Below, one piece after another: positions 20,113-62,358 of a stretch of DNA of 64,000 nt. The DNA is taken from positions 5,949 through 69,948 of the forward strand of contig CAZWYI010000006.1 in the NCBI GenBank assembly GCA_964638155.1, written 5' to 3'. This DNA comes from an uncultured Thermoplasmatales archaeon (GTDB lineage Archaea; Thermoplasmatota; E2; DHVEG-1). Under the pieces are notes generated by a model. It had not been told where the DNA came from and did no database searches. It saw only the letters and a list, made by a program, of their open reading frames with translations. A program made the position numbers and the translations under genes. How positions within the stretch are numbered: position 1 is the stretch's first letter; each line of letters starts with the position of its first letter.

Positions 20113-20309
20113 ATTAATAAAGAGTAGAAAGTATATTCTCATATCTTTAATATTTTTCTTAAAAAATTACGCAAAATCTTTATATAACAAATTAATAGAG
20201 TTTGGTGAGTCTGCAATATTTTTTTTATATATGTGGATTTAATATTTCGTGAGGAGTAAGGGGTAGGTAAAATCATTAATTTAAGGTTTGAGTGGAGGTA
20301 TTTTTTGTG

Positions 20310-30280: not shown

Positions 30281-30283
30281 TGA

Positions 30284-31390
30284 CTATTCACCTCCAGCTA
30301 AATCAGATGATCTTTTTGCTGCATCCTGCAGGGTAGTAGCAGTGATAAGGCCTGCATCTTTTAATATCTCTTTAGCGGCATCTTCATTCATACCTTTAAT
30401 ACGAGTAATAACAGGGCAGTCAATACCTTCTTTTGTAATAACTGCTTTAACACCTTTTGCAACTGTATCACATTTTGTAATTCCACCAAAAAGATTTAAG
30501 AAAATAACTTTTGGTTTTGCTTTTTTCATAAGTTCAAAAGCCTGTTTTACTTTTTCAGGATCATCAGTACCACCAAGGTCAAGAAAAACACCACCTGAGC
30601 CTTTAAAATAAGTTAAGGCATCAAGTGTTGCCATTGTAAGACCTGCCCCATTTGCAATAACACCGATGTTTCCTCCGAGTTGAACAAAAGATATTCCCAT
30701 TTCCTCAGCTTCTTTTTCTAAATCTGTCAGCTCTATATTCTCAGGAGTAATATCTTTGTGGCGGTACATTGCATCATCGTTGATAATCACCTTTGAATCA
30801 ATTGCCATTGCTTTTCCTTTTTTTGTAATAATAAGAGGATTAATCTCTACTAATTCACAATCATATTCCCGGAATAATTTATAAATTTTTGAAAGTACAT
30901 TGGATATTTGTTTTGCTTCTTCTTTTTCAACATTTAATTTTGAAATAATATTTCTACGGTTAAAAGATTGTATTCCAATCAACGGGTTTACCCATTCCTT
31001 GAAGATTTTATTATCTGGGACACTTTCTATATCCATCCCGCCAGAGGCACTAGCCATAATCAAAGGCATTTTTTTAGTTCTATCAAGTGATATACTAAGG
31101 TATAACTCTTTTTTGATGTCAGCCATTTCTTCTGCAAGTACTTTTCCAACTTTATAAGAACGGATAGCCATCCCCATGATTTCAGAAAGCTTTTCTTTAG
31201 CATCATCTAGGTTTTTTGTTGTTTTTATTCCACCAGCTTTTCCTCGTCCACCAATTGGAACTTGTGCTTTTAGAACAAGTGGGAATTTAAGATCTGAAAA
31301 ATCTTTTTCTCCTGAAACAAGTTTGCCGTTTGGGACTGAAATATCATATTTAACAAACAGCTTTTTACCTTGGTACTCAAAAAGTTTCAT
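30284..31390 (-). CDS. sucC: succinyl-CoA synthetase beta subunit (ATP-grasp)
   Basis: MKLFEYQGKKLF N-terminus; 368 aa; coupled to sucD. Confidence 0.9.
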   Translation of the reverse strand: MKLFEYQGKKLFVKYDISVPNGKLVSGEKDFSDLKFPLVLKAQVPIGGRGKAGGIKTTKNLDDAKEKLSEIMGMAIRSYKVGKVLAEEMADIKKELYLSISLDRTKKMPLIMASASGGMDIESVPDNKIFKEWVNPLIGIQSFNRRNIISKLNVEKEEAKQISNVLSKIYKLFREYDCELVEINPLIITKKGKAMAIDSKVIINDDAMYRHKDITPENIELTDLEKEAEEMGISFVQLGGNIGVIANGAGLTMATLDALTYFKGSGGVFLDLGGTDDPEKVKQAFELMKKAKPKVIFLNLFGGITKCDTVAKGVKAVITKEGIDCPVITRIKGMNEDAAKEILKDAGLITATTLQDAAKRSSDLAGGE

Positions 31391-32701: not shown

Positions 32702-32800
32702 TTGATTAAACATATGGTAGAAAAAACTAACCTGTTTGATATAATAATAACTTGTAATTTTACAATTTTTAAAAATTTTGATTTATGTTTTGTGGGGTAA
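32702..32800 (+). promoter_or_regulatory. possible 32-aa upstream leader ORF (TTG start) ending 5 nt before the frdB ATG
   Basis: An AGGAGG at 32689-32694 is followed 7 nt later by TTG; the ORF reads MIKHMVEKTNLFDIIITCNFTIFKNFDLCFVG, and its stop overlaps the frdB RBS. Confidence 0.25.
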
Positions 32801-32805
32801 ACAAA

Positions 32806-33564
32806 ATGACCAAAACTAAACAGGCCCTTGTTAAAGAATCAAAGAAAAAAAACAAGGAAGAAAAATCAGATGAAGTTGAAGTTTACATAATGGGTAAAAG
32901 CTACAAAGTCCCAGCAGGTCTTACAATAATGAAAGCTCTTGAATATGCTGGTTATCGTTTTATCCGTAGTTGCGGTTGTCGAGCAGGTTTTTGCGGAGCT
33001 TGTTCAACAGTTTATAGAATAGAAGATGAACAAAAACTTGGTTTTGATCTGGCTTGTCAAAAAGTTGTAGAGGATCAAATGTATCTTGTTCAGCTTCCTT
33101 TTGTTCCTGGATTAAAAGCTGAATATGACATTGAAAAAATTGAACCAAGCGATACAACTCTTATAGAAATTTATCCAGAACTTGCTAGATGTGTTTCATG
33201 TAATACCTGTACAAAATCCTGTCCACAAGATATTGAAACTATGAAGTATATTCAAATGGCAGTTAGAGGTGATATCGAACGTTGCGCAGAGTTATCCTTT
33301 GACTGCATTCAATGTGGGTTATGTGCTATGAGATGCCCGGCAGACATTAAACATTATCATTTAGCTCAACTTGCCCGTAGACTACGCGGTAAATATCTTG
33401 ACTCAAAATCAAAAAATCTTGCAAAAAGATTAAAAGAAATTGACCAAAGAAAATACGATGAAGAAATTGCAAAACTAATGAAAATGCAGAAAAAAGAAAT
33501 CATTGATCTCTATAATTCAAGAAAAATAGAAGCAGAACAAGAAGAAGATGAAGGGGGCAGCTAA
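32806..33564 (+). CDS. frdB: succinate dehydrogenase/fumarate reductase iron-sulfur subunit (soluble type: 2Fe-2S + 2x[4Fe-4S])
   Basis: CGCRAGFCGAC (Cx4Cx2C plant-type 2Fe-2S), CVSCNTCTKSCP and CIQCGLCAMRCP. Start taken at the ATG at 32806, after a GGGGT RBS; the track gives 32785. Confidence 0.75.
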   Translation: MTKTKQALVKESKKKNKEEKSDEVEVYIMGKSYKVPAGLTIMKALEYAGYRFIRSCGCRAGFCGACSTVYRIEDEQKLGFDLACQKVVEDQMYLVQLPFVPGLKAEYDIEKIEPSDTTLIEIYPELARCVSCNTCTKSCPQDIETMKYIQMAVRGDIERCAELSFDCIQCGLCAMRCPADIKHYHLAQLARRLRGKYLDSKSKNLAKRLKEIDQRKYDEEIAKLMKMQKKEIIDLYNSRKIEAEQEEDEGGS

Positions 33565-33566
33565 TT

Positions 33567-35213
33567 TTGACAGATATTGAAGGATATCCAGATTATATGC
33601 TGGAATCTATTAAAAAAGTAGAGGAAAAAAGAGAGCGTAACCTTAAAAAAACTGTAAAACCAATGAGCATGGAAGAAAGAGAGTCGATGCTTAGTAAATA
33701 CCATCCAGATTATATGAAAGGTACTCGCCGTAAATTAAAAGTAGGTATTAATAAAGGAGAAGTTTTTTACAACGGGCTTTCTGATCTTTTAGAGGCTAGA
33801 CCTATTCTTGGTCCTAAGGATGTTGATCTCGATAAAATTGATTATGATGTAGATACCTTAATTATTGGTGGAGGGGGAGCAGGAACAGTTGCAGCACTTT
33901 TTGCTCATGAATCAGGAGTTTCAATTGATAAAATATTGGTTGTTACTAAACTTCGACATGGTGATGCAAATAGTATGATGGCACAAGGCGGCATCCAAGC
34001 AGCTGATCGACCAGAGGATAGTCCAGCACTGCATTATCTTGACATTTATGGAGGAGGACATTTTACCAATAAACCTGAACTTGCACGTGCTCTTGCTCTT
34101 GATGCACCAAGAATCATAAATTGGCATGAAAATCTTGGTGTAATGTATGATCGTCAAGAAGATGGAGAATTCCAAGAGCTCTCCGGGGGCGGAACCTGTC
34201 GCAACCGTATGCATAGTTGCAAAGACTATTCAGGTATGGAAATAATGAGAAACATCCGTGATAGAGCAAGAAACCTTGAAATCCCTGTTCTAGAATTTGC
34301 ACCTATTGCAGAATTAATCATGGATGATAAAGGGCAAGTTGCAGGAGCAGTAGCATTTAATCTTGAAACCCATGAGTATTATGTAATAAGAGCAAAAGCA
34401 ACAATTCTTGCAACAGGCGGTTCTGGTAGACTTCATCTTTCAAATTATCCAACTACAAATCATTATGGTGCAACTGGTGATGGTCTTATAATGGCCTATC
34501 ATGCAGGGGCAAACCTACGTGATCTTGATACAATTCAAATTCATCCAACTGGTGATGCATTTCCAGAACCAATTGTTGGAATTCTATCAACTGAAAAAAT
34601 TCGAGGTCTAGGGGCAAAACCGCTTAATAAAGACGGTGATCCATTTGTATTCCCACTAGAACCACGTGATGTTGAAGCAGCATCTTTTATTCATGAGTGT
34701 AAAGAAGGTCGAGGAATAATAACACCAACAGGAATGCCAGGTGTCTGGCTTGATACACCTATGATAGAAGAAATTCACGGCGAAGGGACTATAGCTACAA
34801 AACTAGCTGGTGAAGTACGCAAATTCAAACGTTTTGGAATTGATATTACAGAACAACCAATTTTAGTTTATCCAACTCTTCACTATCAAAATGGCGGGGT
34901 TGAAATAAATGAAAAATGTGAGACTCGCGTTCCAGGACTCTTTGCCGCAGGAGAAGTAAGCGGAGGAGTACATGGTAAAAACAGACTAATGGGCAATTCA
35001 CTTCTTGATTTTAATGTCTTCGGACGTAGAGCAGGAATTTATGCTGCTAAATATGTTAAAAAAGCAAAAGTTGGAAAGCTCACACTAAGACATCTTGACA
35101 AATATACCAAAATGCTAGAAGAATCAGGAGTTAAACCAAAGAAAACAGCCCCAATATTACTTCCAGATTATCGTGGTGAAATGGCTATTTCTAGATCACT
35201 TGATATTTTATGA
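33567..35213 (+). CDS. frdA: fumarate reductase/succinate dehydrogenase flavoprotein-family subunit (non-covalent FAD type)
   Basis: IIGGGGAGTVAAL (FAD GxGxxG), AQGGIQAA and a C-terminal GLFAAGEVSGGVHGKNRLMGNSLLD. The ~90-aa N-terminal extension makes the start uncertain (TTG at 33567, alternative ATGs at 33598 or 33713). Confidence 0.75.
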   Translation: MTDIEGYPDYMLESIKKVEEKRERNLKKTVKPMSMEERESMLSKYHPDYMKGTRRKLKVGINKGEVFYNGLSDLLEARPILGPKDVDLDKIDYDVDTLIIGGGGAGTVAALFAHESGVSIDKILVVTKLRHGDANSMMAQGGIQAADRPEDSPALHYLDIYGGGHFTNKPELARALALDAPRIINWHENLGVMYDRQEDGEFQELSGGGTCRNRMHSCKDYSGMEIMRNIRDRARNLEIPVLEFAPIAELIMDDKGQVAGAVAFNLETHEYYVIRAKATILATGGSGRLHLSNYPTTNHYGATGDGLIMAYHAGANLRDLDTIQIHPTGDAFPEPIVGILSTEKIRGLGAKPLNKDGDPFVFPLEPRDVEAASFIHECKEGRGIITPTGMPGVWLDTPMIEEIHGEGTIATKLAGEVRKFKRFGIDITEQPILVYPTLHYQNGGVEINEKCETRVPGLFAAGEVSGGVHGKNRLMGNSLLDFNVFGRRAGIYAAKYVKKAKVGKLTLRHLDKYTKMLEESGVKPKKTAPILLPDYRGEMAISRSLDIL

Positions 35214-35223
35214 GGAAAAAATT

Positions 35224-35478
35224 ATGATAGAAGTTAGAGAAGACTGGTGCAAAGGTTGCAACATCTGCATAGAAAGGTGTCCAGTTAACGCTTTAGAAGA
35301 ATCTGACAATCTCAACAAGAGAGGTGTGCGCCCACCAACACTCAAAAAAAATAATGAATGCAATTATTGCAGGCTCTGTGAATTGTTATGTCCAGATCTT
35401 GCAATAACTGTTATTGCTGAAGAAAAGAAAAGAGAGAATAAAAAAACCCTTTTAACACCAGTAGGGGGAAGAAAATAA
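35224..35478 (+). CDS. korD: 2-oxoacid:ferredoxin oxidoreductase delta subunit (2x[4Fe-4S] ferredoxin)
   Basis: CKGCNICIERCP and CNYCRLCELLCP; start at the ATG at 35224 after a GAGGA RBS. Confidence 0.8.
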   Translation: MIEVREDWCKGCNICIERCPVNALEESDNLNKRGVRPPTLKKNNECNYCRLCELLCPDLAITVIAEEKKRENKKTLLTPVGGRK

Positions 35479-35479
35479 A

Positions 35480-36664
35480 ATGATATATGAGCGAGATCCT
35501 AAGAAAATAAGGGAAATATTGGGAGGAAAAGTCCAATTTTTACTAGGTGATATGGCCTGCGTTTATGGTGGCATACTCGCCGGTGTTTCATTTTTCGGCG
35601 GATATCCTATTACTCCCGCATCAGAGGTCGCCGAAGGAATGGCTAGATTACTACCGCGTGCAGGCGGAACATATATTCAAATGGAAGATGAAATCGGAAG
35701 TATCGCAGCAGTGATAGGCGCAGCATGGGGTGGTGCAAAATCAATGACTGCAACATCTGGACCTGGTTTTTCACTTATGATGGAAAATTATGGATTTGCT
35801 GTAATGACTGAAACACCATGTGTGATAGTAAATGTTCAAAGAACAGGCCCAAGCACAGGTCAGCCAACTCTAGGTGCACAAGGCGATATGATGCAGGCAC
35901 GATATGGAACACATGGAGACTTTGAAGCAATTGCATTTGCACCCAGCACTGTACAGGAATGCCTTGATTTTACAATTGAAGCTTCTAATCTTTCCGAGAA
36001 ATATCGTAATCCAGTTTGTGTTATGGCAGACGGAGAAATTGGACATCTTCGTGAAAGAATTGTAATCCCTGATGAAAAAGATCTTAAACTAATAAATAGA
36101 GTCGAAGCAACAGTTCCAAAAAAGAAATACATTCCTTTTACCAGATCACAAACCCAAAAGAATTCTAAGGTTCCTGATTTTCCAACATTTGGAACAGGAT
36201 ACCGAACATATGTTACAGGCTTAACACATAATGAAAAAGGTTTCCCGGCAACTGATAAACAAAAAGATCATGAAAAACTTGTGAAAAGAATCACCTCTAA
36301 GATTACTGATGATGCTGATAAACTTGTAAAGGTTGAAAAATTAAACCTCGATGACGCAGATATTGCATTTGTAACTTACGGTGCTAGTGCTCGTCCTGCA
36401 GAAACTGCTATGGAAATTGCCCGCTCAAAAGGTAAAAAAGTAGGTTTACTAAGACTTCAAATAGTCTGGCCTTTCCCAGAAAAAGTTATATCAAAACTTG
36501 CAAAACAAGTCGATAAAATAATTGTTCCAGAGATGAATCTAGGCCAAATATATCATCCTATAAAAGAAGCTGCAAGTGGGAACTGTGAAGTAGAAGTAGC
36601 CCCAAAAATAGGCGGTGAGATGCATCTACCATCTGAACTTTTAAAATATCTGGGGGTGAAATAA
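35480..36664 (+). CDS. korA: 2-oxoacid:ferredoxin oxidoreductase alpha subunit
   Basis: 394 aa with the Por/Kor alpha fold signature (GYPITPASEV…); TCA-cycle context suggests 2-oxoglutarate, but this is inferred from neighbours only. Confidence 0.8.
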   Translation: MIYERDPKKIREILGGKVQFLLGDMACVYGGILAGVSFFGGYPITPASEVAEGMARLLPRAGGTYIQMEDEIGSIAAVIGAAWGGAKSMTATSGPGFSLMMENYGFAVMTETPCVIVNVQRTGPSTGQPTLGAQGDMMQARYGTHGDFEAIAFAPSTVQECLDFTIEASNLSEKYRNPVCVMADGEIGHLRERIVIPDEKDLKLINRVEATVPKKKYIPFTRSQTQKNSKVPDFPTFGTGYRTYVTGLTHNEKGFPATDKQKDHEKLVKRITSKITDDADKLVKVEKLNLDDADIAFVTYGASARPAETAMEIARSKGKKVGLLRLQIVWPFPEKVISKLAKQVDKIIVPEMNLGQIYHPIKEAASGNCEVEVAPKIGGEMHLPSELLKYLGVK

Positions 36665-36665
36665 A

Positions 36666-37553
36666 ATGGTAGAAATTAAAACAGCAGATCAATTGAATAA
36701 AAAATATCTCAGAGAGGGAATGTGGCCAACAATTTTTTGTAACGGATGTGGAAATGGAGTAGTACTTGAATATACTTTATGGGCACTTGAGGAACTCGGC
36801 TGGGATATGGATAAAACAGTTTTTGCTTCAGGAATAGGGTGTTCATCTAGAATGCCTGGCTATATAAATGCTGATGCTCTTCATACAACTCATGGACGGG
36901 CAATAGCATTTGCAACCGGAATAAAAGCTGCAAATCCAGATCTTAATGTTGTAATTTTCACAGGAGATGGAGACTGCTCAGGAATAGGTGGTAACCATTT
37001 TATCCATGCAGCTAGAAGAAATATAGATATGACGGTGATTATGATTAATAACTTCATTTATGGTATGACCGGTGGGCAGCTTGCTCCAACTGCACCTTTA
37101 GGAAGCATTGCAACCACAGCACCATATGGAAATATAGAGCCGCCGTTTGATATTTGCAATCTAGCAAAATCACTCGGTGCAAATTATGTAGCAAGATGGT
37201 CTGTTACTCATCCTTATCAGCCTATAAAATCAGTAAAGGCAGCACTAGAGAAAACAGGTTTTTCACTTGTTGAATTTTTAGCCCCATGTCCAACTGCTTA
37301 TGGCCGACGTAATAAGCTAGGAGATATCAAAAAACAATGGGAATGGTATGATAATAACACAATTCTGATTGAAGATTACGAACGAATTATGAACTATGGA
37401 TCTGAAAAAGAAAAAGAAGAAATCAAACACATGTTTCCAGTTGGTGTTTTTCAGGATTTGGAAAAACCAGGATTTTTCGAGCAATACGAAAAACTAGTTG
37501 AAAGACTTGATGGAAAAAAGACTGCTAAATCAAAGAAGGTGATCCACAAATGA
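36666..37553 (+). CDS. korB: 2-oxoacid:ferredoxin oxidoreductase beta subunit (TPP-binding)
   Basis: GDGDCSGIGGNHFIHAARRNIDMTVIMINN (TPP GDG…NN motif) plus Cys ligands; 295 aa. Confidence 0.85.
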   Translation: MVEIKTADQLNKKYLREGMWPTIFCNGCGNGVVLEYTLWALEELGWDMDKTVFASGIGCSSRMPGYINADALHTTHGRAIAFATGIKAANPDLNVVIFTGDGDCSGIGGNHFIHAARRNIDMTVIMINNFIYGMTGGQLAPTAPLGSIATTAPYGNIEPPFDICNLAKSLGANYVARWSVTHPYQPIKSVKAALEKTGFSLVEFLAPCPTAYGRRNKLGDIKKQWEWYDNNTILIEDYERIMNYGSEKEKEEIKHMFPVGVFQDLEKPGFFEQYEKLVERLDGKKTAKSKKVIHK

Positions 37554-38092
37554 AAAAGGAGATACGCATCTGCGGTTTTGGAGGACAGGGCGTTATTCTA
37601 TCAGGCTATATCATTGGAAAAGCAGCATCTGTCTTTATGGATTATAATGCTGTTCAATCTCAATCATATGGCCCTGAAGCACGAGGGGGTGCAGCACGCT
37701 CAGAGGTAATTGTTTCTGACGAAAAAATAGGATATCCAAGACCCATGGGGGTAGATTTACTTGTTGCAATGAGTCAGGAATCATTTGATACATATAGAGA
37801 TGACCTTAACAAAGATACTAAGATTGTTATCGACCCTGATCTTGTTCCAAGACATGACATCGGAACACCAGTTTATAAAATTCAAGCCCAAAAAATCGCA
37901 GAAGAACTTGGCAACAAAATTGTGACAAATATCGTAATGGTTGGTGCATCTACTGCAATCTTTGGACTCTTAGATGAAGATGCTGTAAAAAAATCTGTTA
38001 TGGAAAGCGTTCCGAAAAAATTTATCGATTTAAATGAAAAAGCTTATTTAAAAGGATTAGAGGCAGGAAAAAATGCCCTCAAGAGATTATAA
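37550..38092 (+). CDS. korG: 2-oxoacid:ferredoxin oxidoreductase gamma subunit
   Basis: 180 aa; MKKEIRICGFGGQGVILSGY… typical of the gamma subunit. Confidence 0.8.
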   Translation: MKKEIRICGFGGQGVILSGYIIGKAASVFMDYNAVQSQSYGPEARGGAARSEVIVSDEKIGYPRPMGVDLLVAMSQESFDTYRDDLNKDTKIVIDPDLVPRHDIGTPVYKIQAQKIAEELGNKIVTNIVMVGASTAIFGLLDEDAVKKSVMESVPKKFIDLNEKAYLKGLEAGKNALKRL

Positions 38093-41000
38093 TCAAAAAA
38101 TGGATCATAACCAAGGAATTCCTCTTACTGATGATTACTTTTTAGAAGAACCAGAATTAGCACTATTGAAAGATAAAATGCCAGCTCCTGAGACTACCGT
38201 TAAGGCGTTAGAACAAAGGCTTGCTAAAAAGAAAAAAAGAGTAATCAATGCAGATGTATTAGTTGTTGGTGCAGGTATTTCAGGAATGCAATCTGCACTG
38301 GATATTGCAGATAAAGGCTACAAAGTTGTAATAATTGATAAAACTTCAACTATTGGCGGGGCAATGGTAAAACTTGATAAGACTTTTCCTACAAATGATT
38401 GTAGTATTTGTACAGCGGCACCTAAGATGGTCGAGCTTGCTCGTCACCCAAACGTTGAACTAATCACTTATGCAGAGCTAAATAAATTAGATGGTGAAAA
38501 AGGTGATTTTTCCGCACAAATTTGGAAGAAAACCAAATATGTTGATCCTGATAAGTGTACCGGTTGTGATGACTGTACAGAAGTGTGTCCTGTAGATGTG
38601 GTGAGTAGTTTTAATGAAAAAATTTCAACTCGTAAAGCAATTTATATCGAGTTTCCACAGGCAGTTCCAATAGTCTATACAATTGATCATGAACACTGTA
38701 CCGGATGTGGAGCCTGCGATAGAGTTTGTGAACCAGAGGCAATTAATTTTCTAGAAAAATCCCAAGAAATAGAAGTAAAAGTAGGTGCTGTAGTTGTTGC
38801 TACTGGTTTTGAAGTATTTGAACCAAATGAGATACGTAAAGAATATGGTTATGGAAAATATGATAATGTTATGACTGCAATGCAGTTTGAAAGACTTTTA
38901 TCAAGTTTTGGTCCTACATCAGGAAAAGTACTACGCCCTTCAGATTTAAAGAAACCAAAAAAAATTGGTTGGATACAATGCGTCGGATCACGTAGTGAAC
39001 AAGATGGATATCCCTATTGTTCACGGGTTTGCTGTATGTATGCCACAAAAGAAGCAAGCATTGTAAAAGAATCAAACCCAGATATTGATATTAACATATA
39101 TTATATGGATATTAGAGCCTATGGTAAAGATTTCCAACAATATTATGATCATGCAAAAGACCTTGGTGTAAAATACAAAAGAGGCCGCCCTTCAAATGTT
39201 TATGAAAACAAGGATAAAAGCCTAACTGTAAGATATAAAGATACACTCTCTGGAAAAGTAGAGGAAGACAAAGTTGACTTACTTGTACTTTCCACATCTA
39301 TTATTCCTTCAAAACACAATAAAAAATTAGCAAAAATCCTTGGAATTGAAGTTGATGAAAACGGCTTTTTTAAACAAGATTCGCTTTTGAATAACCCTGT
39401 TCAATCAACTAAAGATGGTATATTTTTAGCAGGGTGTATTCAGGGGCCAAAGGATATTCCAGATAGTGTAAGTATGGCAAGCGGTGCAGCTGCAAAAGCA
39501 GTTTCACCTGTAAAAGATAGAAAAAGACATATCGGCCGTGACTTTCCAGCGGAAAAAGATGTATCTTTAGAAGAACCTAGAATTGGTGTTTTCATATGCC
39601 ATTGCGGTAAAAACATTGCAGGTTATCTTGATGTTGAAAAGCTAACTGAAAAAGTCAAAAAACAAGCAAATGTTGAATATGCAGAACATGTGATGTTTGC
39701 ATGTTCTGAGGATACTTGTAAAAAAATCCGTGAAACAATAAAAGAGAAAAAACTCAATAGAATTGTAGTTGCTGCCTGCTCACCAAGAACTCATGGTGGC
39801 TTGTTTCAGGATACATTACTTGAGGCAGGTTTAAACAAATATCTATTTGAAATGGCAAATATTCGTAACCACTGCAGTTGGGTTCACTCTGATGACTGGG
39901 ATAAGGCAACTGAAAAAGCAATAGGCCTTATTGATGCAGCTATAGCTAAAGTAAGATTACTAGAGCCTCTTAGTGAAGAGGAATTTTCAATTATCCCTAA
40001 AGTACTTGTTATCGGAGGGGGAGTATCAGGGATGAAGGCATCTCTTGCACTAGCTGATATGGGTATTAAATCATATTTAATTGAAAAAGAAAAAGAGCTG
40101 GGCGGGAGACTAAAACACCTACATTCCATGTTTCCATCTGATACCAAAGCAAAAGATATAATTAATCCATTAATTAAGAAAGTCAATAAAAACAAACTTA
40201 TTACTGTAATGAGAGAAGCAACACTTGCAGATATTGATGGTTTTATTGGTAACTACGAAGGCACAATTAAACATAAAGGTAAAAAGAAAAAACTGGAGTT
40301 TGGAACAATAATTGTTTCAACTGGTTTTAAAGAAGTAGACCTTAAAGGGCAGTATCAATATGGAAAAAATAAAAATATTCTTTCTCAAACAGAACTTGAA
40401 GAAAAAATCAAGAAAGGAGAATTAAAGAAGAAACCAAAAAACGTGGTAATGGTAAACTGCGCTGGCGCTATGGATGAAAAAAGACCTTATTGTTGTCGTA
40501 TAGGTTGCGGTGTTGCAATTAAAAATGCAAAGCTTATTTCTGAGAAATATCCTGGTGCAAAGATTTGGTTACTATATAGAGATATGCGTGTTTTTGGAAA
40601 AGAAGAAGAGGAATATTATTCTGATGTATTAGAGAATCAACATGTCACAATGGTTCGTTATCCTAGTGAGAAAAAACCAGAGGTAGTCTTAGACAAAAAA
40701 GATCCAATAGATGGGCCTATAAAAATAAAAGTATATGATGATATTTTAGGTGAAGAACTAACAATAGACTCAGATTTAGTTGTACTTACAGTTAATACTG
40801 AGGGTGAGGTTTTAACTGATACTTTGAAAAATATGCTAAAGATACCTGCAGATGCCGGTGGATTCTTTTTAGAAGCACATGCAAAAATCAGACCTCTTGA
40901 TTTTGCAACTGATGGTATATTCCTATGTGGTGCTGCTCATTTTCCAAAAAATTTAGTTGATTCAATTGCTCAGGCAGAAGGTGCTGCATCTCGGGCGGCA

Positions 41001-41288
41001 ATTCCAATAATGCAGGAGAAAATGAAAGGAGAAGGTCAGGTTGCAGAGGTAAATGAAGACCTCTGCAGTGGATGTAAGACATGTGAATCACTTTGCCCGT
41101 ATTCTGCAATAAGTGTTGAGCCTAAAAAGGATGATCCTGATCATCTTGTTGCAGAAGTAAATCGCGCTCTTTGCAAAGGATGTGGTGCATGTGCCGCTGG
41201 TTGTCCATCTGGTGCTATAGAACAGATGGGATTTAAAACAAAGCAGATACAAGTCATGGTAAATGCTCTTTTAGGGGAGTGTAAATAA
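38073..41288 (+). CDS. hdrA: tandem fusion of two HdrA-like flavoproteins: an N-terminal HdrA/QmoA-like FAD module with an inserted 2x4Fe-4S ferredoxin, plus a complete HdrA (N-domain + FAD + C-terminal ferredoxin)
   Basis: First FAD motif VVGAGISGMQSALD; inserted CTGCDDCTEVCP and CTGCGACDRVCEP. Then the HdrA N-domain PRIGVFICHCGKNIAGYLD. Second FAD motif VIGGGVSGMKASL; C-terminal CSGCKTCESLCP and CKGCGACAAGCP. An alternative start is the ATG at 38100. Confidence 0.8.
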   Translation: MPSRDYNQKMDHNQGIPLTDDYFLEEPELALLKDKMPAPETTVKALEQRLAKKKKRVINADVLVVGAGISGMQSALDIADKGYKVVIIDKTSTIGGAMVKLDKTFPTNDCSICTAAPKMVELARHPNVELITYAELNKLDGEKGDFSAQIWKKTKYVDPDKCTGCDDCTEVCPVDVVSSFNEKISTRKAIYIEFPQAVPIVYTIDHEHCTGCGACDRVCEPEAINFLEKSQEIEVKVGAVVVATGFEVFEPNEIRKEYGYGKYDNVMTAMQFERLLSSFGPTSGKVLRPSDLKKPKKIGWIQCVGSRSEQDGYPYCSRVCCMYATKEASIVKESNPDIDINIYYMDIRAYGKDFQQYYDHAKDLGVKYKRGRPSNVYENKDKSLTVRYKDTLSGKVEEDKVDLLVLSTSIIPSKHNKKLAKILGIEVDENGFFKQDSLLNNPVQSTKDGIFLAGCIQGPKDIPDSVSMASGAAAKAVSPVKDRKRHIGRDFPAEKDVSLEEPRIGVFICHCGKNIAGYLDVEKLTEKVKKQANVEYAEHVMFACSEDTCKKIRETIKEKKLNRIVVAACSPRTHGGLFQDTLLEAGLNKYLFEMANIRNHCSWVHSDDWDKATEKAIGLIDAAIAKVRLLEPLSEEEFSIIPKVLVIGGGVSGMKASLALADMGIKSYLIEKEKELGGRLKHLHSMFPSDTKAKDIINPLIKKVNKNKLITVMREATLADIDGFIGNYEGTIKHKGKKKKLEFGTIIVSTGFKEVDLKGQYQYGKNKNILSQTELEEKIKKGELKKKPKNVVMVNCAGAMDEKRPYCCRIGCGVAIKNAKLISEKYPGAKIWLLYRDMRVFGKEEEEYYSDVLENQHVTMVRYPSEKKPEVVLDKKDPIDGPIKIKVYDDILGEELTIDSDLVVLTVNTEGEVLTDTLKNMLKIPADAGGFFLEAHAKIRPLDFATDGIFLCGAAHFPKNLVDSIAQAEGAASRAAIPIMQEKMKGEGQVAEVNEDLCSGCKTCESLCPYSAISVEPKKDDPDHLVAEVNRALCKGCGACAAGCPSGAIEQMGFKTKQIQVMVNALLGECK

Positions 41289-41290
41289 AT

Positions 41291-41719
41291 ATGCCAAAGG
41301 AAAAACTACCAAAGAACAAAGAAATAAGTCAGCTAACTTTTAAAAAAGGTGAACTGGCAAGAGAAGTCGAAGAAATCAGTGGTGAAAATCTCTTTGGCTG
41401 TTATCAATGCGGAACATGTTCTGCAGGTTGTCCATATGTTGATGATATGGATCTTACACCAGATGAGGTTATTAGATACATTATACTTGATAGAACGGAG
41501 GTACTAAACTCTAAAACGATTTGGCTTTGCTCAGCATGTTTTACATGCGCTGAACGCTGCCCCCGCAATATCAATATCACAAAAATTATGGAGGCTCTCC
41601 GCCAGATTATTCTTAGAAGAAAAATAGATCATAGTAATGCTCATAAAACAACAAAGAAAGAAAGAGAAAAGATACCGCAAATTGCGTTTGTAAGTTTATT
41701 TAGGAAAAATATTGGCTGA
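41291..41719 (+). CDS. hdrC: heterodisulfide reductase subunit C
   Basis: CYQCGTCSAGCP and CSACFTCAERCP; 142 aa. Confidence 0.85.
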   Translation: MPKEKLPKNKEISQLTFKKGELAREVEEISGENLFGCYQCGTCSAGCPYVDDMDLTPDEVIRYIILDRTEVLNSKTIWLCSACFTCAERCPRNINITKIMEALRQIILRRKIDHSNAHKTTKKEREKIPQIAFVSLFRKNIG

Positions 41720-41724
41720 TTGTT

Positions 41725-42606
41725 ATGAAATTATTATACTACCCTGGTTGCACACTTAAAACATCTGCAAAAAATCTTGAAAAAACAGCTTTTGCAATAA
41801 TGGATAAACTTGGCCATGAACTAAAGGAGATGGATGATTGGGTATGCTGCGGCGTTGTATCATCACTTTCTGATGATGATTTAATGAGACATCTGGCACC
41901 GCTTCGTTCATTGATTCATGTTGAAGATCAAGGTGAAAAAAAAGTAATTAGTCTCTGTGACATGTGCTGCAACACTCTCAAACAGACTAATCTTAGGGTT
42001 AAGGAAAAACCTGATGATTTTGAAACTCTAAATGATTTTATGGATCAGGAAAATGATTATAAAAAAACAGTTGAGGTCTATCATTTCTTGGAGTTCTTAC
42101 GGGATGATATAGGTTTTGACAAATTGAAAAAAATGGTTAAAAACCCACTTTCTGGTCTAAAAATTATGCCTTATTACGGGTGTATGTTGTTAAGACCAAG
42201 AGAGGTTGCAATTGATGATGCCGAAGATCCAACTATTATGAGCGATCTTTTAAGGGCTCTTGGTGCAGAAGTAGTTGACAATCCATTTAAGATAGAATGT
42301 TGTGGTTCTTATCATACTATAGAAAATAAAGATATTGTTATAAATCGTGCATATCGTATCACAAATTTTGCAATTGAAAGAGATGCCGATGCAATTATGC
42401 TTTCTTGTCCGCTATGCCGTTTTAATTTAGATGAAAGGGGAAAAGAAGCAGAAAAGTTACACAAGGGATACCAACAGATTCCTGTTTATTATTACACACA
42501 ATTGATGGCAATAGCACTGGGAATTGATCCTTCATTATGCGGTTTTGATCAGCATGCTGTTGATCCAAAATTGTTATTGAAAAGAAAAGGGGTTTATGAA
42601 AAATAA
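41725..42606 (+). CDS. hdrB: heterodisulfide reductase subunit B (two CCG domains)
   Basis: YYPGCTLK…, and CCG motifs (VCCG…, ECCGS…); 293 aa. Confidence 0.85.
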   Translation: MKLLYYPGCTLKTSAKNLEKTAFAIMDKLGHELKEMDDWVCCGVVSSLSDDDLMRHLAPLRSLIHVEDQGEKKVISLCDMCCNTLKQTNLRVKEKPDDFETLNDFMDQENDYKKTVEVYHFLEFLRDDIGFDKLKKMVKNPLSGLKIMPYYGCMLLRPREVAIDDAEDPTIMSDLLRALGAEVVDNPFKIECCGSYHTIENKDIVINRAYRITNFAIERDADAIMLSCPLCRFNLDERGKEAEKLHKGYQQIPVYYYTQLMAIALGIDPSLCGFDQHAVDPKLLLKRKGVYEK

Positions 42607-42629
42607 AAAGTTAGGTGGTATTATATATG

Positions 42630-43628
42630 ACTAAAAAAAAGAAAAACAAAGAAAAAAAGAAACTCCAATTAGCATTCTACTGGGCTGCTAGTTGTGGCGG
42701 CTGTGAAATAGCAGTCCTTGATATTGATGAAAAGATTTTAGATGTAATAGAAATAGCTGATATCTTGTTTTGGCCTGTTGCTATGGATTTCAAATATAAA
42801 GATGTTGAAGCTATGAAAGATAACCATATCGATGTATGTTTCTTCAATGGCTCTATTAGAACAGAGGAACAAGAACATATTGCAAAATTACTTCGTAAAA
42901 AATCAAAAGTCCTTGTAGCATTTGGGGCATGTGCTGTAAGTGGCGGGATCCCTGGTCTTGGTAATGTTGCTAACAAAAAAGAAATTTTTGAGGTTGCCTA
43001 CTTAGATAATCCATCCACTGTTAACAAAAAGAAAATAACACCAAAACCAAAAGTGAAAGTAAAAGAAGGGGATCTAACACTCCCTGAATTTTATGATACT
43101 GTAAAAACTCTAGATCAGACAGTTGATGTTGATTACTATTTGCCAGGTTGTCCACCTACTCCTGACATGATTATGACAGCGGTCGAGGCTATAGCAGAAA
43201 ATAAACTACCACCAAAAGGCTCTATCCTTGGGCCATCAAAATCTGTCTGTGATGAATGTCGTTTTGAAAAAACAGAGAAAAAAATCAAGGAAATAAAACG
43301 TGTATATGAGGTCGATAAAATCGAAGATAAATGTCTACTTGAACAAGGAATCATCTGTCTCGGTCCTGCAACACGCGGTGGGTGTGACGCCCGCTGTCTT
43401 GATGCAAATATGCCCTGTACAGGATGCGGTGGGCCTACACCACACTCCATGGATCAAGGTGCAAGTATGATATCAGCAATTGCGTCTATTCTTGGATTAG
43501 AAGGTGAAGAAAAAATGAGTGATGAAGAAGTTCAAAAACTTATCGACCAAGTAATAGATCCAATTGGAACTTTCTATAAATATGGTTTACCTAGTGCCAT
43601 TCTTAATAGGAGGCTTGTTAAAAAATGA
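42630..43628 (+). CDS. mvhG: [NiFe]-hydrogenase small subunit (group 3c, Mvh type)
   Basis: LAFYWAASCGGCEIAVLD proximal-cluster motif and no Tat signal. Start at the ATG at 42630 after an AGGTGG RBS. Confidence 0.85.
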   Translation, partial: TKKKKNKEKKKLQLAFYWAASCGGCEIAVLDIDEKILDVIEIADILFWPVAMDFKYKDVEAMKDNHIDVCFFNGSIRTEEQEHIAKLLRKKSKVLVAFGACAVSGGIPGLGNVANKKEIFEVAYLDNPSTVNKKKITPKPKVKVKEGDLTLPEFYDTVKTLDQTVDVDYYLPGCPPTPDMIMTAVEAIAENKLPPKGSILGPSKSVCDECRFEKTEKKIKEIKRVYEVDKIEDKCLLEQGIICLGPATRGGCDARCLDANMPCTGCGGPTPHSMDQGASMISAIASILGLEGEEKMSDEEVQKLIDQVIDPIGTFYKYGLPSAILNRRLVKK

Positions 43629-45085
43629 AAACTGTAACAATTGATCCCATTACAAGACTTGAGGGACATGGAAAAATAAGTATATTTTTAGATGACATAG
43701 GTGATGTAGCAAATGCCTACCTTCAGATACCTGAACTTAGAGGATTTGAACGATTCAGCGAAGGTAGACGTGCAGAAGATATGCCACAAATCACAAGTAG
43801 AATATGTGGGGTATGTCCGGTTGCTCATCACTTTGCAGCAACAAAAGCACTTGATGATGCTTTTAATGTCACTCCTCCATCTGCAGCAAAAAAACTCCGT
43901 GAATTAATGTACATGGGATATATCATCTATGATCATATTCTGCATTTTTATTATTTAGGGGGGCCTGATTTTGTAGTAGGTCCAGATGCACCTCCATCAA
44001 AAAGAAATATTCTTGGTGTTATAGAAAAAGCAGGTGTTGATATTGGAAAAGAAGTAATAAAACACAGGGCATATGGCCAGAAAATAACAGCAATTCTCGG
44101 TGGAAAGGCAACTCATCCAGTATGTGGTCTTCCTGGTGGTGTATCAAAGGGGCTTAATAAAGATGAAGTAATAGACATTGAAAAAATGACAAAGTCCTGT
44201 GTTGATTTTGCTAAGTTTTCTTTAAAACTTTTTGATGACATAGTTCTACAAAATAAAGATTATGTGGATATGATACTTAGTGACCCATATCAGTTAAAAA
44301 CATATAATATGGGGCTTGTTGATAAGAATAATAAGTTAAATTTTTATGATGGCACAATCCGTGTTACTGATCAAAAAGGAAAGGAATACAAAAAGTTTGA
44401 TGTGAAAGATTATTATAAAAATATTTCAGAACATGTAGAAGAATGGTCCTATATGAAATTCCCTTATCTTAATAGTATAGGCTGGAAGGGATTTAAAGAT
44501 GGAAAAGATAGTGGAATATATCGTGTGGGGCCATTAGGAAGACTTAATGCAGCTGAGGGCATGGCAACTCCTCTAGCAGATAAAGAATACAACAAATTTT
44601 ATGAAACACTTGGTGGAAAAGCAGTCAATAGTACCCTTGCCTTTCACTGGGCTCGGTTAATAGAACTTTTGTATGCAACAGAGAGGGCAACTGAACTTTT
44701 AAAAGACAAGGAACTCACTTCAGAAAAAGTAAAAAATCCAGTTGGAAAACCAGGTGAAGGATTTGGTGTAATAGAAGCTGCCCGTGGTACACTTATTCAT
44801 CATTATAAACTTGATAAAAACGGGCTTATTGATAAAGCAAATTTAATTGTTGCAACTACAAACAATGCAGGTGCAATAAACATGAGCATACGCGATGCAG
44901 CAAAAGGTTTGATAAAAAACGGTAATGTTGATGATGCAACATTAAACATGGTTGAAATGGCATTTCGTGCATATGATCCATGTTTTGCCTGTGCAACGCA
45001 CACTCTACCTGGTGGTATGCCACTTAAAGTTGAAATCTATGATCATAATAAAAAACACATTAAAACATTAAAACAAAATCTATAG
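43625..45085 (+). CDS. mvhA: [NiFe]-hydrogenase large subunit (Mvh type)
   Basis: N-terminal RICGVCPVAHH and C-terminal DPCFACATH Ni-Fe ligand motifs, all Cys with no in-frame TGA; 486 aa. Confidence 0.9.
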   Translation: MKTVTIDPITRLEGHGKISIFLDDIGDVANAYLQIPELRGFERFSEGRRAEDMPQITSRICGVCPVAHHFAATKALDDAFNVTPPSAAKKLRELMYMGYIIYDHILHFYYLGGPDFVVGPDAPPSKRNILGVIEKAGVDIGKEVIKHRAYGQKITAILGGKATHPVCGLPGGVSKGLNKDEVIDIEKMTKSCVDFAKFSLKLFDDIVLQNKDYVDMILSDPYQLKTYNMGLVDKNNKLNFYDGTIRVTDQKGKEYKKFDVKDYYKNISEHVEEWSYMKFPYLNSIGWKGFKDGKDSGIYRVGPLGRLNAAEGMATPLADKEYNKFYETLGGKAVNSTLAFHWARLIELLYATERATELLKDKELTSEKVKNPVGKPGEGFGVIEAARGTLIHHYKLDKNGLIDKANLIVATTNNAGAINMSIRDAAKGLIKNGNVDDATLNMVEMAFRAYDPCFACATHTLPGGMPLKVEIYDHNKKHIKTLKQNL

Positions 45086-45094
45086 GAATAAAAA

Positions 45095-45565
45095 ATGAAA
45101 ACTATAATATTAGGAGTTGGAAACCAGATTCTAGGTGATGACGGTGTAGGAATACACGTAGTAAAAGAGTTAAAAAAACACCTTCAAAATAATTCAAATG
45201 TCACTATAGATGAGGCGATAACTGGCGGAATGAATCTATTAGACCTACTCCTAGGATATGAAAAAGCAATAATAGTTGATGCTGTAAAATCAGATGATGC
45301 AAAAGAGGGGGAGGTTAAAAGAATTCCTCTCGGTGATTTTAAGACTATGCATTCCTGTAATCCTCATGATGTAAGCTTAACTGAAGCAATTGAAATGGCA
45401 GAAAAATTAGGGGAGAAAAGAATTCCAACAGAAATAGTTGTCATTGGAATAATGATGAAACAAATTCCTTGTGAATTCAAAGAAAACCTCAGTAGTAATA
45501 TTGCTTCTGCTGTTCCAAAAGCTGTAAAAATGACTATCAACGAATTAAAAAATGAAAATAATTAG
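45095..45565 (+). CDS. hydrogenase maturation endopeptidase (HycI/HybD family)
   Basis: IILGVGNQILGDDGVGIHVV; 156 aa. Confidence 0.8.
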   Translation: MKTIILGVGNQILGDDGVGIHVVKELKKHLQNNSNVTIDEAITGGMNLLDLLLGYEKAIIVDAVKSDDAKEGEVKRIPLGDFKTMHSCNPHDVSLTEAIEMAEKLGEKRIPTEIVVIGIMMKQIPCEFKENLSSNIASAVPKAVKMTINELKNENN

Positions 45566-45585: not shown

Positions 45586-46008
45586 ATGGCAAAAAAAGAA
45601 TTTGAACCAAAAATTATTGGGTTTTTATGTAACTGGTGTAGTTATGCTGGAGCAGACTTGGCAGGCACAAGTCGTATGAGATATCCACCAAACATAAAAA
45701 GCATTCGTGTGATGTGCTCAGGCCGTGTGGAACCTGCATTTGTACTTGAAGCATTAAAAAAAGGAGCTGATGGAGTGCTTATTGCTGGATGCCATCCAGG
45801 TGATTGTCATTATCAGTCTGGTAATTACAAAACAAACCGCCGTATTAAACTTCTAAAAAAACTTTTAAAGGATATGGGAGTTGAACCAGAGCGGGTAAGA
45901 TTTGAGTATATATCTGCATCTGAGGGGCAGAAATTTGCAGATACTGTTACTGATTTTGTAAAAGAACTCAAAAAATTAGGGCCAAATCCAATAAAGGTTG
46001 AATTATGA
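45586..46008 (+). CDS. mvhD: methyl-viologen-reducing hydrogenase delta subunit
   Basis: [16 protein letters not shown]…CSGRVEP…GCHPGDCHY (MvhD/FlpD family Cys pattern); 140 aa. Confidence 0.85.
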
Positions 46009-47441
46009 ATAAAAATGTAGATATCGATAAATTAAAAGATATAGTCGGCGAAAATAATGTTAGAGATAATATCGCTGATTTATACGTTTATTCATCTGAT
46101 GCATCAGTTCATAGTAAATTGCCTGATGTAGTTGTAAGACCAGAATCTACAAAACAAGTACAAGAAATTATGCGTTATGCAAATAAAAATAAAATACCAG
46201 TAGTCACAAGAGGTGCCGGTTCAGGAATGAGTGGACAAACAGTTCCACTTGATGGCGGCATCATTCTTGATATTAAAAAAATGGATAAAATAATTGAAAT
46301 CCGCCCTGAAGATGTTATTTGTAAAGTTGAACCGGGGGTTGTAAACGATGAATTAAACCGTGTTTTAAAACCATATGGTTTCTTTTTCCCACCAACACCT
46401 TCCTCCGGTCGTATATGTACAATTGGTGGTATGATAGGAACAAATGCATCAGGAAACCGCTCTGTTAAATATGGTGCAACTCGTGATGCTGTACTTGGAA
46501 TGAAAGTAGTTCTTGCAAATGGAGATTTAGTAACCCTTGGGTCAAACACTAAAGTCGATTCATCAGGGTATCAACTTGCAAGACTTATGGTTGGTTCTGA
46601 AGGAACACTTGGGATTGTTGTTGAGGCAACCCTTCTGATATCACCCACTCCAAAATATCGTGCTATGGGTATTGCAAACTTTAAAACACTTCAAGATGCA
46701 GGAAAAATGATTAGTGATACTATTGCAAATGGTATAACTCCGTCTATGCTTGAACTTATGGATAATGTTGCAATAACTGCAGTAAATAACGCTCAAGATA
46801 TGGATCTTCCTGATGTTGAAGCAATTGTTATTTTTGAATGTAATGGTATGACTAAAGAAACAGTTGATTATGAAATAAATCAATTAAAAAAGATTTGTAA
46901 AAAACATAATGGAAATGGTATTAAAATCACTCATGATGAAAAAGAAATGACAAAAATATACACAGGAAGGAAAAAACTGTTTCCATCTCTATCCAGATAC
47001 AAAGAGGGCCTATATACAACTGCTCTAGCTGATGATATGGCAGTACCTATGAGTAAAATTGCTGATACCATAAATAAAATCCATGAAATAGCAGGTAAAA
47101 ATAAGGTTGTAATGAGTGCATATGGTCACTGTGGTGCAGGTTTAATACACACTAAAATTCTTATGGATACAACTAAGGAATCCCAATGGAAAAATGCAAA
47201 AAATGCAGTAAAAGAAGTATATGATTATGTTCACTCCATTGGTGGTACTACTTCAGGTGAACATGGTATAGGTTTTTCCAAAGGACCTTCTTTTAAAGAA
47301 GAAAAAAAGGACTCACTTGAGATGATGCGTGCAATAAAATATGCACTTGATCCAAATAATATTCTAAATCCAAATAAACTTATGGATTCACCTGACGATT
47401 GGCTTACTGCAACTAAATTACGTTATCGAGTTGAAACATAA
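46005..47441 (+). CDS. FAD-linked oxidase, GlcD/D-lactate dehydrogenase-like
   Basis: 478 aa; FAD-binding PCMH domain with the [10 protein letters not shown] motif and a C-terminal GEHGIG motif; ATGA overlap with the mvhD stop. Confidence 0.75.
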
Positions 47442-47470
47442 AATTAATATAATTGTTTGAGGGAGAAAAT

Positions 47471-59771: not shown

Positions 59772-59792
59772 AGGGGCTTACGGCCTGCATAC

Positions 59793-61007: not shown

Positions 61008-61011
61008 TTGA

Positions 61012-62268: not shown

Positions 62269-62358
62269 TTATCTCCCTCAGATTATTCTGTCTTTTCAGA
62301 TATATTATAAGATAAATCACCTAATATATTTATATGTTTACTTATATTCGCCGAACTG

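Follow-up and report, generated by a model that had tools for sequence, protein, structure and literature searches.

In methanogenic archaea, HdrA, the flavoprotein of heterodisulfide reductase (Hdr), works as a homodimer whose catalytic units are, in models from cryo-electron microscopy (cryo-EM), built in trans (PMC12350162, PMC13580544). What becomes of such an arrangement when two HdrA modules share one polypeptide is the question raised by a gene in a 64,000-nucleotide stretch of DNA (the window) from an uncultured Thermoplasmatales archaeon (GenBank assembly GCA_964638155.1, contig CAZWYI010000006.1, positions 5,949 to 69,948 of the forward strand). A single unbroken open reading frame (ORF) on the plus strand, 38073-41288, encodes 1071 amino acids (aa) and two HdrA-like modules, which span aa 56-480 (module 1, or half 1) and aa 499-1071 (module 2, or half 2). 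The initial annotation had described this protein as a tandem HdrA-HdrA fusion with complementary domain sets, possibly a covalent heterodimer with two non-equivalent flavins. The reading favoured here with moderate confidence, which draws on an observed domain map, ligand conservation, operon and wide distribution, is that the fusion (HdrAA) would act as a single-chain pseudo-heterodimer of HdrA within an MvhAGD-HdrAA-HdrBC complex, with one bifurcating flavin, located in half 1.

When the whole protein was searched with phmmer against all PDB chains, the best match was methanogen HdrA (E ~1e-209), in three colinear pieces. Residues 61-433 correspond to residues 145-518 of M. thermolithotrophicus HdrA, i.e. 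to the thioredoxin-reductase-like domain for flavin adenine dinucleotide (FAD) with its inserted ferredoxin; residues 499-655, which contain PRIGVFICHCGKNIAGYLD, correspond to HdrA 1-157, the N-terminal domain (N-domain); and residues 930-1064 correspond to HdrA 516-647, where the FAD domain finishes and the C-terminal ferredoxin follows. A search with aa 500-1071 alone also covered the weakly similar middle and gave colinearity with residues 10-245 and 314-655 of M. marburgensis HdrA; the sole HdrA segment absent from half 2, at approximately 246-313, is the inserted ferredoxin, a clean deletion. Within half 1, no N-domain-like sequence was seen before the first FAD fold and there is no C-terminal ferredoxin; the fold ends at about aa 480, and an 18-residue linker then leads straight into the N-domain. 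Pfam matches lie at aa 61-99 (FAD and NAD(P) Rossmann) and at aa 992-1050 (Fer4 and Fer4_7). The N-domain cluster and both ferredoxins, the inserted and the C-terminal one, all of which are found in a canonical protomer, occur once each per chain and are divided between the modules. Aligning both halves with characterized methanogen HdrA bears out, in every detail, the description given in the initial annotation, namely a first half with the FAD fold and inserted 2x[4Fe-4S] ferredoxin but neither N-domain nor C-terminal ferredoxin, and a second half with the latter two domains but no inserted ferredoxin. The complementarity extends further than had been seen, to a pair of cysteines beside the flavin.

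It had been recognized from the outset that the fusion might be spurious, either because gene calling had merged two ORFs or because the first half was a QmoA-like or other protein unrelated to HdrA function. The probability of this rival is now negligible, and no points in its favour were found. As regards merging, no break interrupts the frame. In addition, a length of approximately 1071 aa is shared by more than 120 database proteins with 74-100 % identity to the fusion, which come from independent assemblies, among them contigs of 1.8 and 2.3 Mb. The junction itself is also shared. Using aa 401-700 as the query against one genome per species, 580 relatives were reported, perhaps including canonical HdrAs, and in 77 of the best 80 loci, which were inspected, the end of the first FAD domain runs directly into an N-domain and second FAD domain; the same junction is present in 137 of the best 150 clusters of a 50 %-identity library (107 below 1200 aa and 30 of at least 1200 aa), while only four of those 150 begin with the N-domain, the layout of canonical HdrA. 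An artefact of gene calling or assembly is contradicted by both sets. The ORF start overlaps the stop of the preceding gene by 20 nucleotides, an arrangement that is usual inside operons.

As regards family, the first half aligns to HdrA 145-518, inserted ferredoxin included, and possesses the HdrA-type cysteine pair; its best structural match, the HdrA core 8rwn_A, has a template modelling (TM) score of 0.93 and 48 % identity over 428 columns. No QmoA model appears among the 25 best NCBIfam matches listed for the first half, the top ones being HdrA2 and HdrA. A QmoA-like first half is thus without support, its core matching methanogen HdrA by PDB, Foldseek and NCBIfam searches, which involved no direct comparison with QmoA sequences. 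Against the NCBIfam equivalog models for HdrA and HdrA2 (NF041778, NF041891, NF040770), the fusion scores below the curated cut-offs, i.e. 1029 vs 1100 (HdrA2), 818 vs 1400 and 775 vs 1300. What it does display is the signature of a fused double HdrA, i.e. two FAD modules with a Cys197-type pair in one and the N-domain and C-terminal ferredoxin in the other.

The cysteine pair of half 1, Cys110 and Cys113, is the equivalent of Cys202/Cys205 in M. marburgensis HdrA and of Cys197 in M. thermolithotrophicus HdrA, and the role of this flavin-adjacent pair has been described (PMC13580544). Half 1 retains it within DKTFPTNDCSIC, whereas the methanogen loop DKTFPTLDCSMC has become HSMFPSDTKAKD in half 2, with TKAKD in place of the pair. 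Among 27 diverse short-form homologues from species-representative genomes, which served as the sample for ligand conservation, 25 carry the pair, in half 1 only. Both flavin sites look occupied. There are two dinucleotide-binding motifs that align to HdrA, one at aa 66 (GAGISG) and the other at aa 648 (GGGVSG), and the FAD motifs of half 2 (GGG648-650 of GxGxxG, E671, GG677-678, G948 and G953) are invariant (27/27). The sites therefore appear to be filled yet non-equivalent, as had been proposed. Motif conservation, together with the precedent of Moorella HdrA discussed below, suggests that two FAD would be bound, of which just one would bifurcate.

All of the ligands listed for both halves are kept in 25-27 of the 27 homologues, including the inserted-ferredoxin cysteines C162/165/168/172 and C209/212/215/219 (26-27/27) and the N-domain [4Fe-4S] site C509, C511, C544 and C569 (27/27). 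The cofactors predicted for half 1 are FAD, the HA4 cluster and two inserted-ferredoxin clusters, alongside the cysteine pair, and those predicted for half 2 are the N-domain site, FAD, an HA4-type site and two C-terminal-ferredoxin clusters, giving a predicted total per fusion of two FAD and seven [4Fe-4S] clusters vs two FAD and 12 clusters in the canonical homodimer. The HA4 pattern of the HdrA family, C-x(12-13)-C-x3-CC, is recognizable in half 1 (C303/316/320/321) and, with its fourth ligand moved, in half 2 (C796/807/808/812). At the latter site, 19 of the 27 homologues have C811 with S808, and the other eight, which include the window protein, have C808 with G811; judged from the alignment, the fourth ligand is shifted from the canonical CC position 811 to 808, the residue after the second cysteine, and not lost. 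Three library proteins (P0175, P0179 and P0182) have the inserted ferredoxin in both halves and the cysteine pair in half 1 only, and are apparent evolutionary intermediates in which the pair had already gone from half 2.

Further indication of the importance of the pair comes from the loci fetched with the junction query. Exactly at the second cysteine of the half 1 pair, 19 of 80 have an in-frame TGA (L012, L018, L029, L036, L038, L039, L048, L050, L051, L062, L063, L065-L068, L076 and L078-L080), including metagenome-assembled genomes (MAGs) of Desulfobacterales, Desulfobacteraceae and Syntrophobacteraceae. The context is LDKTFPTNDCAM-TGA-IISPKLVE, with an intact Rossmann fold and LDKTFPTNDCAM preceding the TGA, and it occurs in half 1 only. 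In D. autotrophicum, HdrA and HdrL proteins have been reported as selenoproteins (PMC2702500), and the TGA-bearing fused HdrAs are probably selenoproteins too, with the TGA read as selenocysteine. Because selenocysteine would occupy this position in those 19 loci, the second cysteine position is likely redox-active. TGA-bearing genes of this kind are easily mis-called as truncated; when delimited from stop to stop, Desulfobacterales homologues appear as ORFs of approximately 950 and 1420 aa, and the cysteine-pair segment lies just upstream, beyond the in-frame TGA.

How these parts might work together is suggested by the methanogen complexes, in which a mobile arm, made up of the N-terminal domain and C-terminal ferredoxin of one protomer, carries MvhD and the hydrogenase. 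The [2Fe-2S] cluster of MvhD nears the flavin of the partner protomer beside the partner's Cys202/Cys205; the high-potential electron exits via the partner's HA4 to HdrC and then HdrB, and the low-potential electron passes from the shuttle cluster of the arm to the partner's inserted ferredoxin, HA5' and HA6' (PMC12350162, PMC13580544). In the fusion, half 2 would represent the arm, with N-domain and C-terminal ferredoxin, and half 1 would represent a complete bifurcating core, with FAD, Cys110/Cys113, HA4 and inserted ferredoxin. The reciprocal unit would be gone on both sides, with half 1 lacking an arm and half 2 lacking the cysteine pair and inserted ferredoxin. Because one trans unit is kept and its reciprocal removed, the enzyme is expected to have one bifurcating flavin per HdrAA chain. 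By oxidizing H2, the complex would reduce both ferredoxin and, at HdrB, an acceptor of the disulfide type, or it would run in reverse toward H2. The second flavin and HA4-type cluster would probably be kept mainly to complete the dimer-like core structurally, although they may have a secondary role in redox chemistry. It is in this sense that we infer intramolecular pairing of the halves, the identity of the bifurcating flavin, the substrate and the direction. The asymmetric fusion amounts to a natural deletion experiment, in which one module retains the arm and its partner retains the flavin, the cysteine pair, HA4 and the inserted ferredoxin, and its complementary losses provide independent support for the route of electrons in trans that cryo-EM of methanogen Hdr complexes had indicated. 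The fusion also suggests an enzyme with a single site, simpler than the symmetric dimer and more amenable to study. What the second flavin does is a tractable question.

The partners needed for such a complex are encoded immediately downstream (Table 1), in the order hdrAA-hdrC-hdrB-mvhG-mvhA-protease-mvhD; HdrB, HdrC, MvhD and both the large and small subunits of a [NiFe] hydrogenase, i.e. the gene set of an MvhAGD-HdrABC complex, are thus found together. By comparison with 5odc_D and 9sw2_D, the MvhD protein retains the equivalents of M. marburgensis MvhD Cys16, His68 and Asp71, which face or contact the cysteine pair, in NWC, GCH and GDC motifs. For the HdrB-like protein, the second-best NCBIfam match is SdhE.

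Whether the two halves pair within one chain was approached with an AlphaFold2 monomer run on a 78-sequence alignment (43-87 % identity). The structure model of the whole fusion is compact, with a mean predicted local distance difference test (pLDDT) score of 83.3 and a predicted TM score (pTM) of 0.84; pLDDT falls below 50 only in aa 1-53, in the loop at aa 102-110 just before the cysteine pair, and in aa 600-604. For two halves of ~500 residues each, a pTM of 0.84 indicates a confident prediction of how they sit relative to each other and thus favours a fixed packing, and the halves may reproduce the HdrA/HdrA' interface as an intramolecular 'covalent heterodimer'. In a Foldseek comparison with the PDB, the top matches are HdrA chains only, e.g. 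8rvu_A (TM 0.81, 37 % identity over 658 columns) in addition to 8rwn_A, with the sHdrA structure 6TJR following them at rank 12; neither phmmer nor Foldseek found a solved structure of a fused HdrA itself in the PDB. The model nevertheless comes from a monomer run, and another arrangement has to be weighed, in which fusions dimerize with swapped partners, half 1 of one chain working with half 2 of the other, so as to yield two functional trans units. Canonical Hdr complexes are dimers of heterohexamers (PMC9012536), and the linker, at just 18 residues, does not by its sequence forbid intermolecular pairing. Yet, the single-chain pTM speaks for confident placement of the halves within one chain, and P492, E494 and D496 of the linker are at least 90 % conserved in the 78-sequence alignment, implying that the linker is no random spacer and suiting a fixed intramolecular geometry. 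A swapped dimer is therefore considered rather unlikely.

A second alternative concerns the flavin of half 2, which, along with the HA4-type cluster, might form a second, non-bifurcating electron route and so make the protein a three- or four-way redox hub in which both flavins work. The targets of that route could be a second HdrBC copy or the fumarate-reductase-like flavoprotein of the same operon. The invariant FAD motifs of half 2 and the rescue of its four-cysteine site by the ligand move are in keeping with this idea, as is the presence of two FAD in Moorella HdrA (PMC5861303). So, too, is the neighbourhood, as genes for an SdhB-like iron-sulfur protein, a TfrA-like flavoprotein and a four-subunit 2-oxoacid:ferredoxin oxidoreductase of the 2-oxoglutarate type lie directly upstream in the same direction, and the related Thermoplasmata loci L001, L002, L004 and L033 share this Sdh/Oor/HdrAA synteny, which L005 retains in rearranged form. 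However, half 2 has no feeding arm, cysteine pair or ferredoxin exit of its own, there is one hdrCB pair only per fused gene, and the non-catalytic halves of other pseudo-dimers also retain cofactors, such that conservation alone is no proof of activity. On balance, two working flavins seem unlikely. A more specific version, in which the second flavin and relocated HA4-type cluster would be an electron port to the upstream fumarate-reductase-like flavoprotein while the ferredoxin exit would serve the 2-oxoglutarate:ferredoxin oxidoreductase, is speculative and very improbable; if true, it would mean H2-linked bifurcation to fumarate and ferredoxin, or confurcation from succinate and reduced ferredoxin to H2, in a non-methanogen without the heterodisulfide of coenzyme M (CoM) and coenzyme B (CoB). 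More generally, through the gene neighbourhood, which spans fumarate to 2-oxoglutarate, what the complex delivers at ferredoxin and at HdrB could be connected to that pathway.

Several points weigh against a single-chain pseudo-heterodimer with one bifurcating flavin. The invariance of the FAD motifs and the moved HA4-type ligand represent more conservation than a purely structural remnant needs; the monomer prediction leaves room for the domain-swapped dimer; and the arm might be less free to move, given that its N-domain is additionally tethered to half 1. In addition, HdrB, HdrC, MvhA and the fusion all score below the NCBI equivalog cut-offs for the methanogen enzymes, the acceptor at HdrB may be something other than CoM-S-S-CoB, and presumably the host, an uncultured Thermoplasmata archaeon, is non-methanogenic. 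Judging from the literature consulted, biochemical study of this fused subfamily has been very slight. For purposes of annotation, fused-HdrA genes should not be taken as evidence of a methanogen-type heterodisulfide metabolism.

Table 1. Features of the fused HdrA, its operon and related genes in the window
Feature	Position	Strand	Basis
N-terminal extension, aa 1-55	38073..38237	+	pLDDT <50 for aa 1-53
Half 1 FAD domain, first part, aa 56-150	38238..38522	+	Aligns to HdrA 145-236; GAGISG and DKTFPTNDCSIC loop
Half 1 Cys110-x-x-Cys113 pair	38400..38411	+	Aligned to DCSMC/DCSIC of solved HdrAs
Half 1 inserted ferredoxin, aa 151-235, predicted 2x[4Fe-4S] (HA5/HA6 equivalents)	38523..38777	+	Aligns to HdrA inserted ferredoxin
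Half 1 FAD domain, second part, aa 236-480	38778..39512	+	HdrA alignment; Foldseek match 8rwn_A, TM 0.93
Half 1 predicted HA4 [4Fe-4S] site, C303, C316, C320, C321	38979-39035	+	Conserved 27/27
Inter-module linker, aa 481-498	39513..39566	+	Predicted coil; conserved P492/E494/D496 just before N-domain
Half 2 N-terminal (MvhD-like) domain, aa 499-635	39567..39977	+	Aligns to HdrA 1-140
Half 2 FAD domain, aa 636-985	39978..41027	+	Colinear with HdrA minus ~246-313; FAD motifs and HA4-type four-Cys site kept
Half 2 predicted HA4-type site, C796-x10-C807-C808-x3-C812	40458..40508	+	C796, C807, C812 conserved 27/27
Half 2 C-terminal ferredoxin, aa 986-1071, predicted 2x[4Fe-4S], plus stop codon	41028..41288	+	Aligns to HdrA 568-655
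HdrC-like subunit, predicted 2x[4Fe-4S]	41291..41719	+	Pfam Fer4_8 and Fer4_17; NCBIfam HdrC 82 bits vs cut-off 160
HdrB-like subunit, two CCG domains	41725..42606	+	Pfam CCG x2; NCBIfam HdrB 163 bits vs cut-off 345
MvhG-like small subunit of [NiFe] hydrogenase	42615-43628	+	Pfam Oxidored_q6
MvhA-like large subunit of [NiFe] hydrogenase	43625-45085	+	Pfam NiFeSe_Hases; best NCBIfam VhuA 428 bits vs cut-off 800
Hydrogenase maturation protease	45095..45565	+	Pfam HycI
MvhD, [2Fe-2S] adaptor	45586..46008	+	Pfam FlpD, E 1.6e-58
HdrC2	49618-50106	+	Second module set
HdrB2	50103-50984	+	Second module set
HdrL-type paralogue, 1576 aa	50981-55711	+	NCBIfam PRK12771 534 bits, above cut-off 516
SdhB-like, TfrA-like and 2-oxoacid:ferredoxin oxidoreductase genes	32785-38092	+	TfrA (thiol:fumarate reductase) is best NCBIfam match, below cut-off
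Succinyl-CoA synthetase and fumarase genes	29414-31390 and 55724-57135	-	Near the hdr/mvh genes

The fusion is best understood in relation to systems that are already known. With the methanogen HdrA homodimers of the MvhAGD-HdrABC, Fdh-Hdr-Fmd and Elp-Hdr complexes (5ODC, 7BKB, 8RVU and 9SW2), it shares all four domain types, all cluster ligands, the flavin-adjacent cysteine pair and structural matches at TM 0.81-0.93, and the window operon also encodes an Mvh-type hydrogenase together with MvhD, HdrC and HdrB as partners; unlike them, it has two unequal modules in one chain and just one arm, cysteine pair and inserted ferredoxin. In anaerobic methanotrophic archaea (ANME), Chadwick et al. 2022 described HdrA homologues of more than 1000 aa as fusions of two HdrAs (HdrA3/HdrA4) with complementary loss of the N-domain, C-terminal ferredoxin and Cys197, proposing that these are 'their own heterodimeric partners', and likewise described the tandem hdrA gene pairs HdrA5/6 and HdrA12/13; the built-in heterodimer was read as breaking two-fold symmetry, and Moorella HdrA was assigned to the same type (PMC9012536). 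The window fusion resembles ANME HdrA3/4 in having two HdrA modules with complementary losses, but the order published for the latter is N-domain module first and Cys197 module second, whereas in the window protein and nearly all relatives examined, the core comes first and the arm second. Both orders may exist, as one fused library protein (P0172) has its N-domain at the very N-terminus. As to Moorella thermoacetica, the HdrA of its MetFV-HdrABC-MvhD complex, purified in 2014, is cited as having a measured two FAD (PMC5861303), and its partner is MetFV, in contrast to the complete MvhAGD hydrogenase that accompanies the window fusion. The sHdrA of sulfur oxidizers (Hyphomicrobium denitrificans, 6TJR), with its FAD core and single [4Fe-4S] cluster, resembles the core of each module, but is a minimal, unfused homodimer without N-domain and ferredoxin domains. 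Duplicated-HdrA fusions have also been catalogued in Asgard and TACK archaea. The 1071-aa protein is an ordinary member of a large, widespread and already recognized family, and the pseudo-heterodimer idea is not new. What is added here is that the domains are divided exactly as the mobile-arm mechanism in trans would have it, that the second flavin site is conserved throughout the family, that an HA4 ligand of half 2 has moved, and that cysteine and selenocysteine alternate at the half 1 pair.

A second hdrCB set in the window adjoins a 1576-aa paralogue, which, as the initial annotation had it, follows the same two-part logic; its segment order is that of the 1071-aa fusion, plus an insertion of approximately 590 residues (aa ~162-753), a GltD/NfnB-like module situated inside the inserted ferredoxin. 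The name HdrL goes back to a 2009 description of a fusion of HdrA and glutamate synthase in Desulfobacterium autotrophicum (PMC2702500), and both HdrL of that organism and ANME-1 HdrA9-11, which have an NfnB-like insertion, are like the window's paralogue and differ from the 1071-aa fusion, in which the GltD/NfnB-like module is absent. The published descriptions of HdrL that were consulted do not spell out the two-module logic. Proteins of ~1420-1590 aa with the HdrL-type layout occur in many of the fetched loci. Compared half by half, the window paralogue shares 63 % and 56 % identity with a Dehalococcoidia protein but 48 % and 41 % with the neighbouring 1071-aa fusion, and is thus closer to the former.

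The loci retrieved with the junction query come from Thermoplasmata, Bathyarchaeia, Promethearchaeota and Hermodarchaeota within the Archaea and, among bacteria, from Chloroflexota/Dehalococcoidia, Desulfobacterales, Syntrophaceae, Acidobacteriota, Planctomycetota, Actinomycetota and others; the nearest named relatives are MAGs of Thermoplasmata/Thermoprofundales, i.e. Marine Benthic Group D. Of the 80 loci, 66 have an mvhD gene adjoining the fused gene, and roughly half have hdrCB there. The electron-donor module varies, being a full Mvh hydrogenase in the window, NuoF-like in Desulfatibacillum and FrhB-like in a Desulfobacterales MAG. In two loci (L074, 8723-11956, and L058, Desulfatibacillum), a NuoG-like 2Fe-2S N-terminus replaces the Rossmann fold and cysteine-pair segment of half 1, and a gene for a NuoF-like flavoprotein lies directly upstream, which points to a different input, perhaps NADH, to the same scaffold. 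A neighbour-joining tree of the C-terminal parts of the FAD domains, rough and without support values, was made from both window paralogues and from proteins of an Asgard archaeon, a Dehalococcoidia bacterium and Desulfosarcina. The first halves, without exception, fall into one cluster close to canonical HdrA, and every second half belongs to a separate clade. This pattern, which holds across both paralogues and across Archaea and Bacteria, supports the ancient duplication of a two-flavin unit that had been suggested, and would fit a history in which the asymmetric fusion arose once, long ago, and then diverged into short and long forms.

There are some other features of the protein and its surroundings. 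The N-terminal extension of the fusion, 55 residues that are predicted to be disordered, is limited to close Thermoplasmata relatives, with 40-53 % identity in L001-L004 and a partial match at 30 % in L033; other homologues lack it. Genes for the fumarate-succinate-succinyl-CoA-2-oxoglutarate segment surround the hdr/mvh genes. Between the two Hdr sets, the plus strand carries a gene for a GlcD-like FAD-linked oxidase followed by one for an iron-sulfur protein with two CCG domains (GlcF/HdrD-like; 46005-48568), and this pair may be a lactate or glycolate dehydrogenase module that feeds the second Hdr set. A lipoate-protein ligase gene (48529-49617, plus strand) lies between that pair and hdrC2-hdrB2-hdrL; in the sHdr loci of sulfur oxidizers, too, Hdr-like proteins are accompanied by lipoate-binding proteins and their own dedicated ligases. 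Farther away, the window encodes a 2977-aa protein of FG-GAP repeats, of which 14 stretches were matched (20292-29225, plus strand, where GC skew is strongly positive), and a 1241-aa BNR-repeat/metallophosphoesterase protein (13528-17253, minus strand), both of which are probably surface proteins. After the redox island comes 58401-63819, which encodes an aldehyde dehydrogenase, an acyl-CoA dehydrogenase, a lactate racemase resembling LarA and a flavoprotein of the DAO/BFD type.

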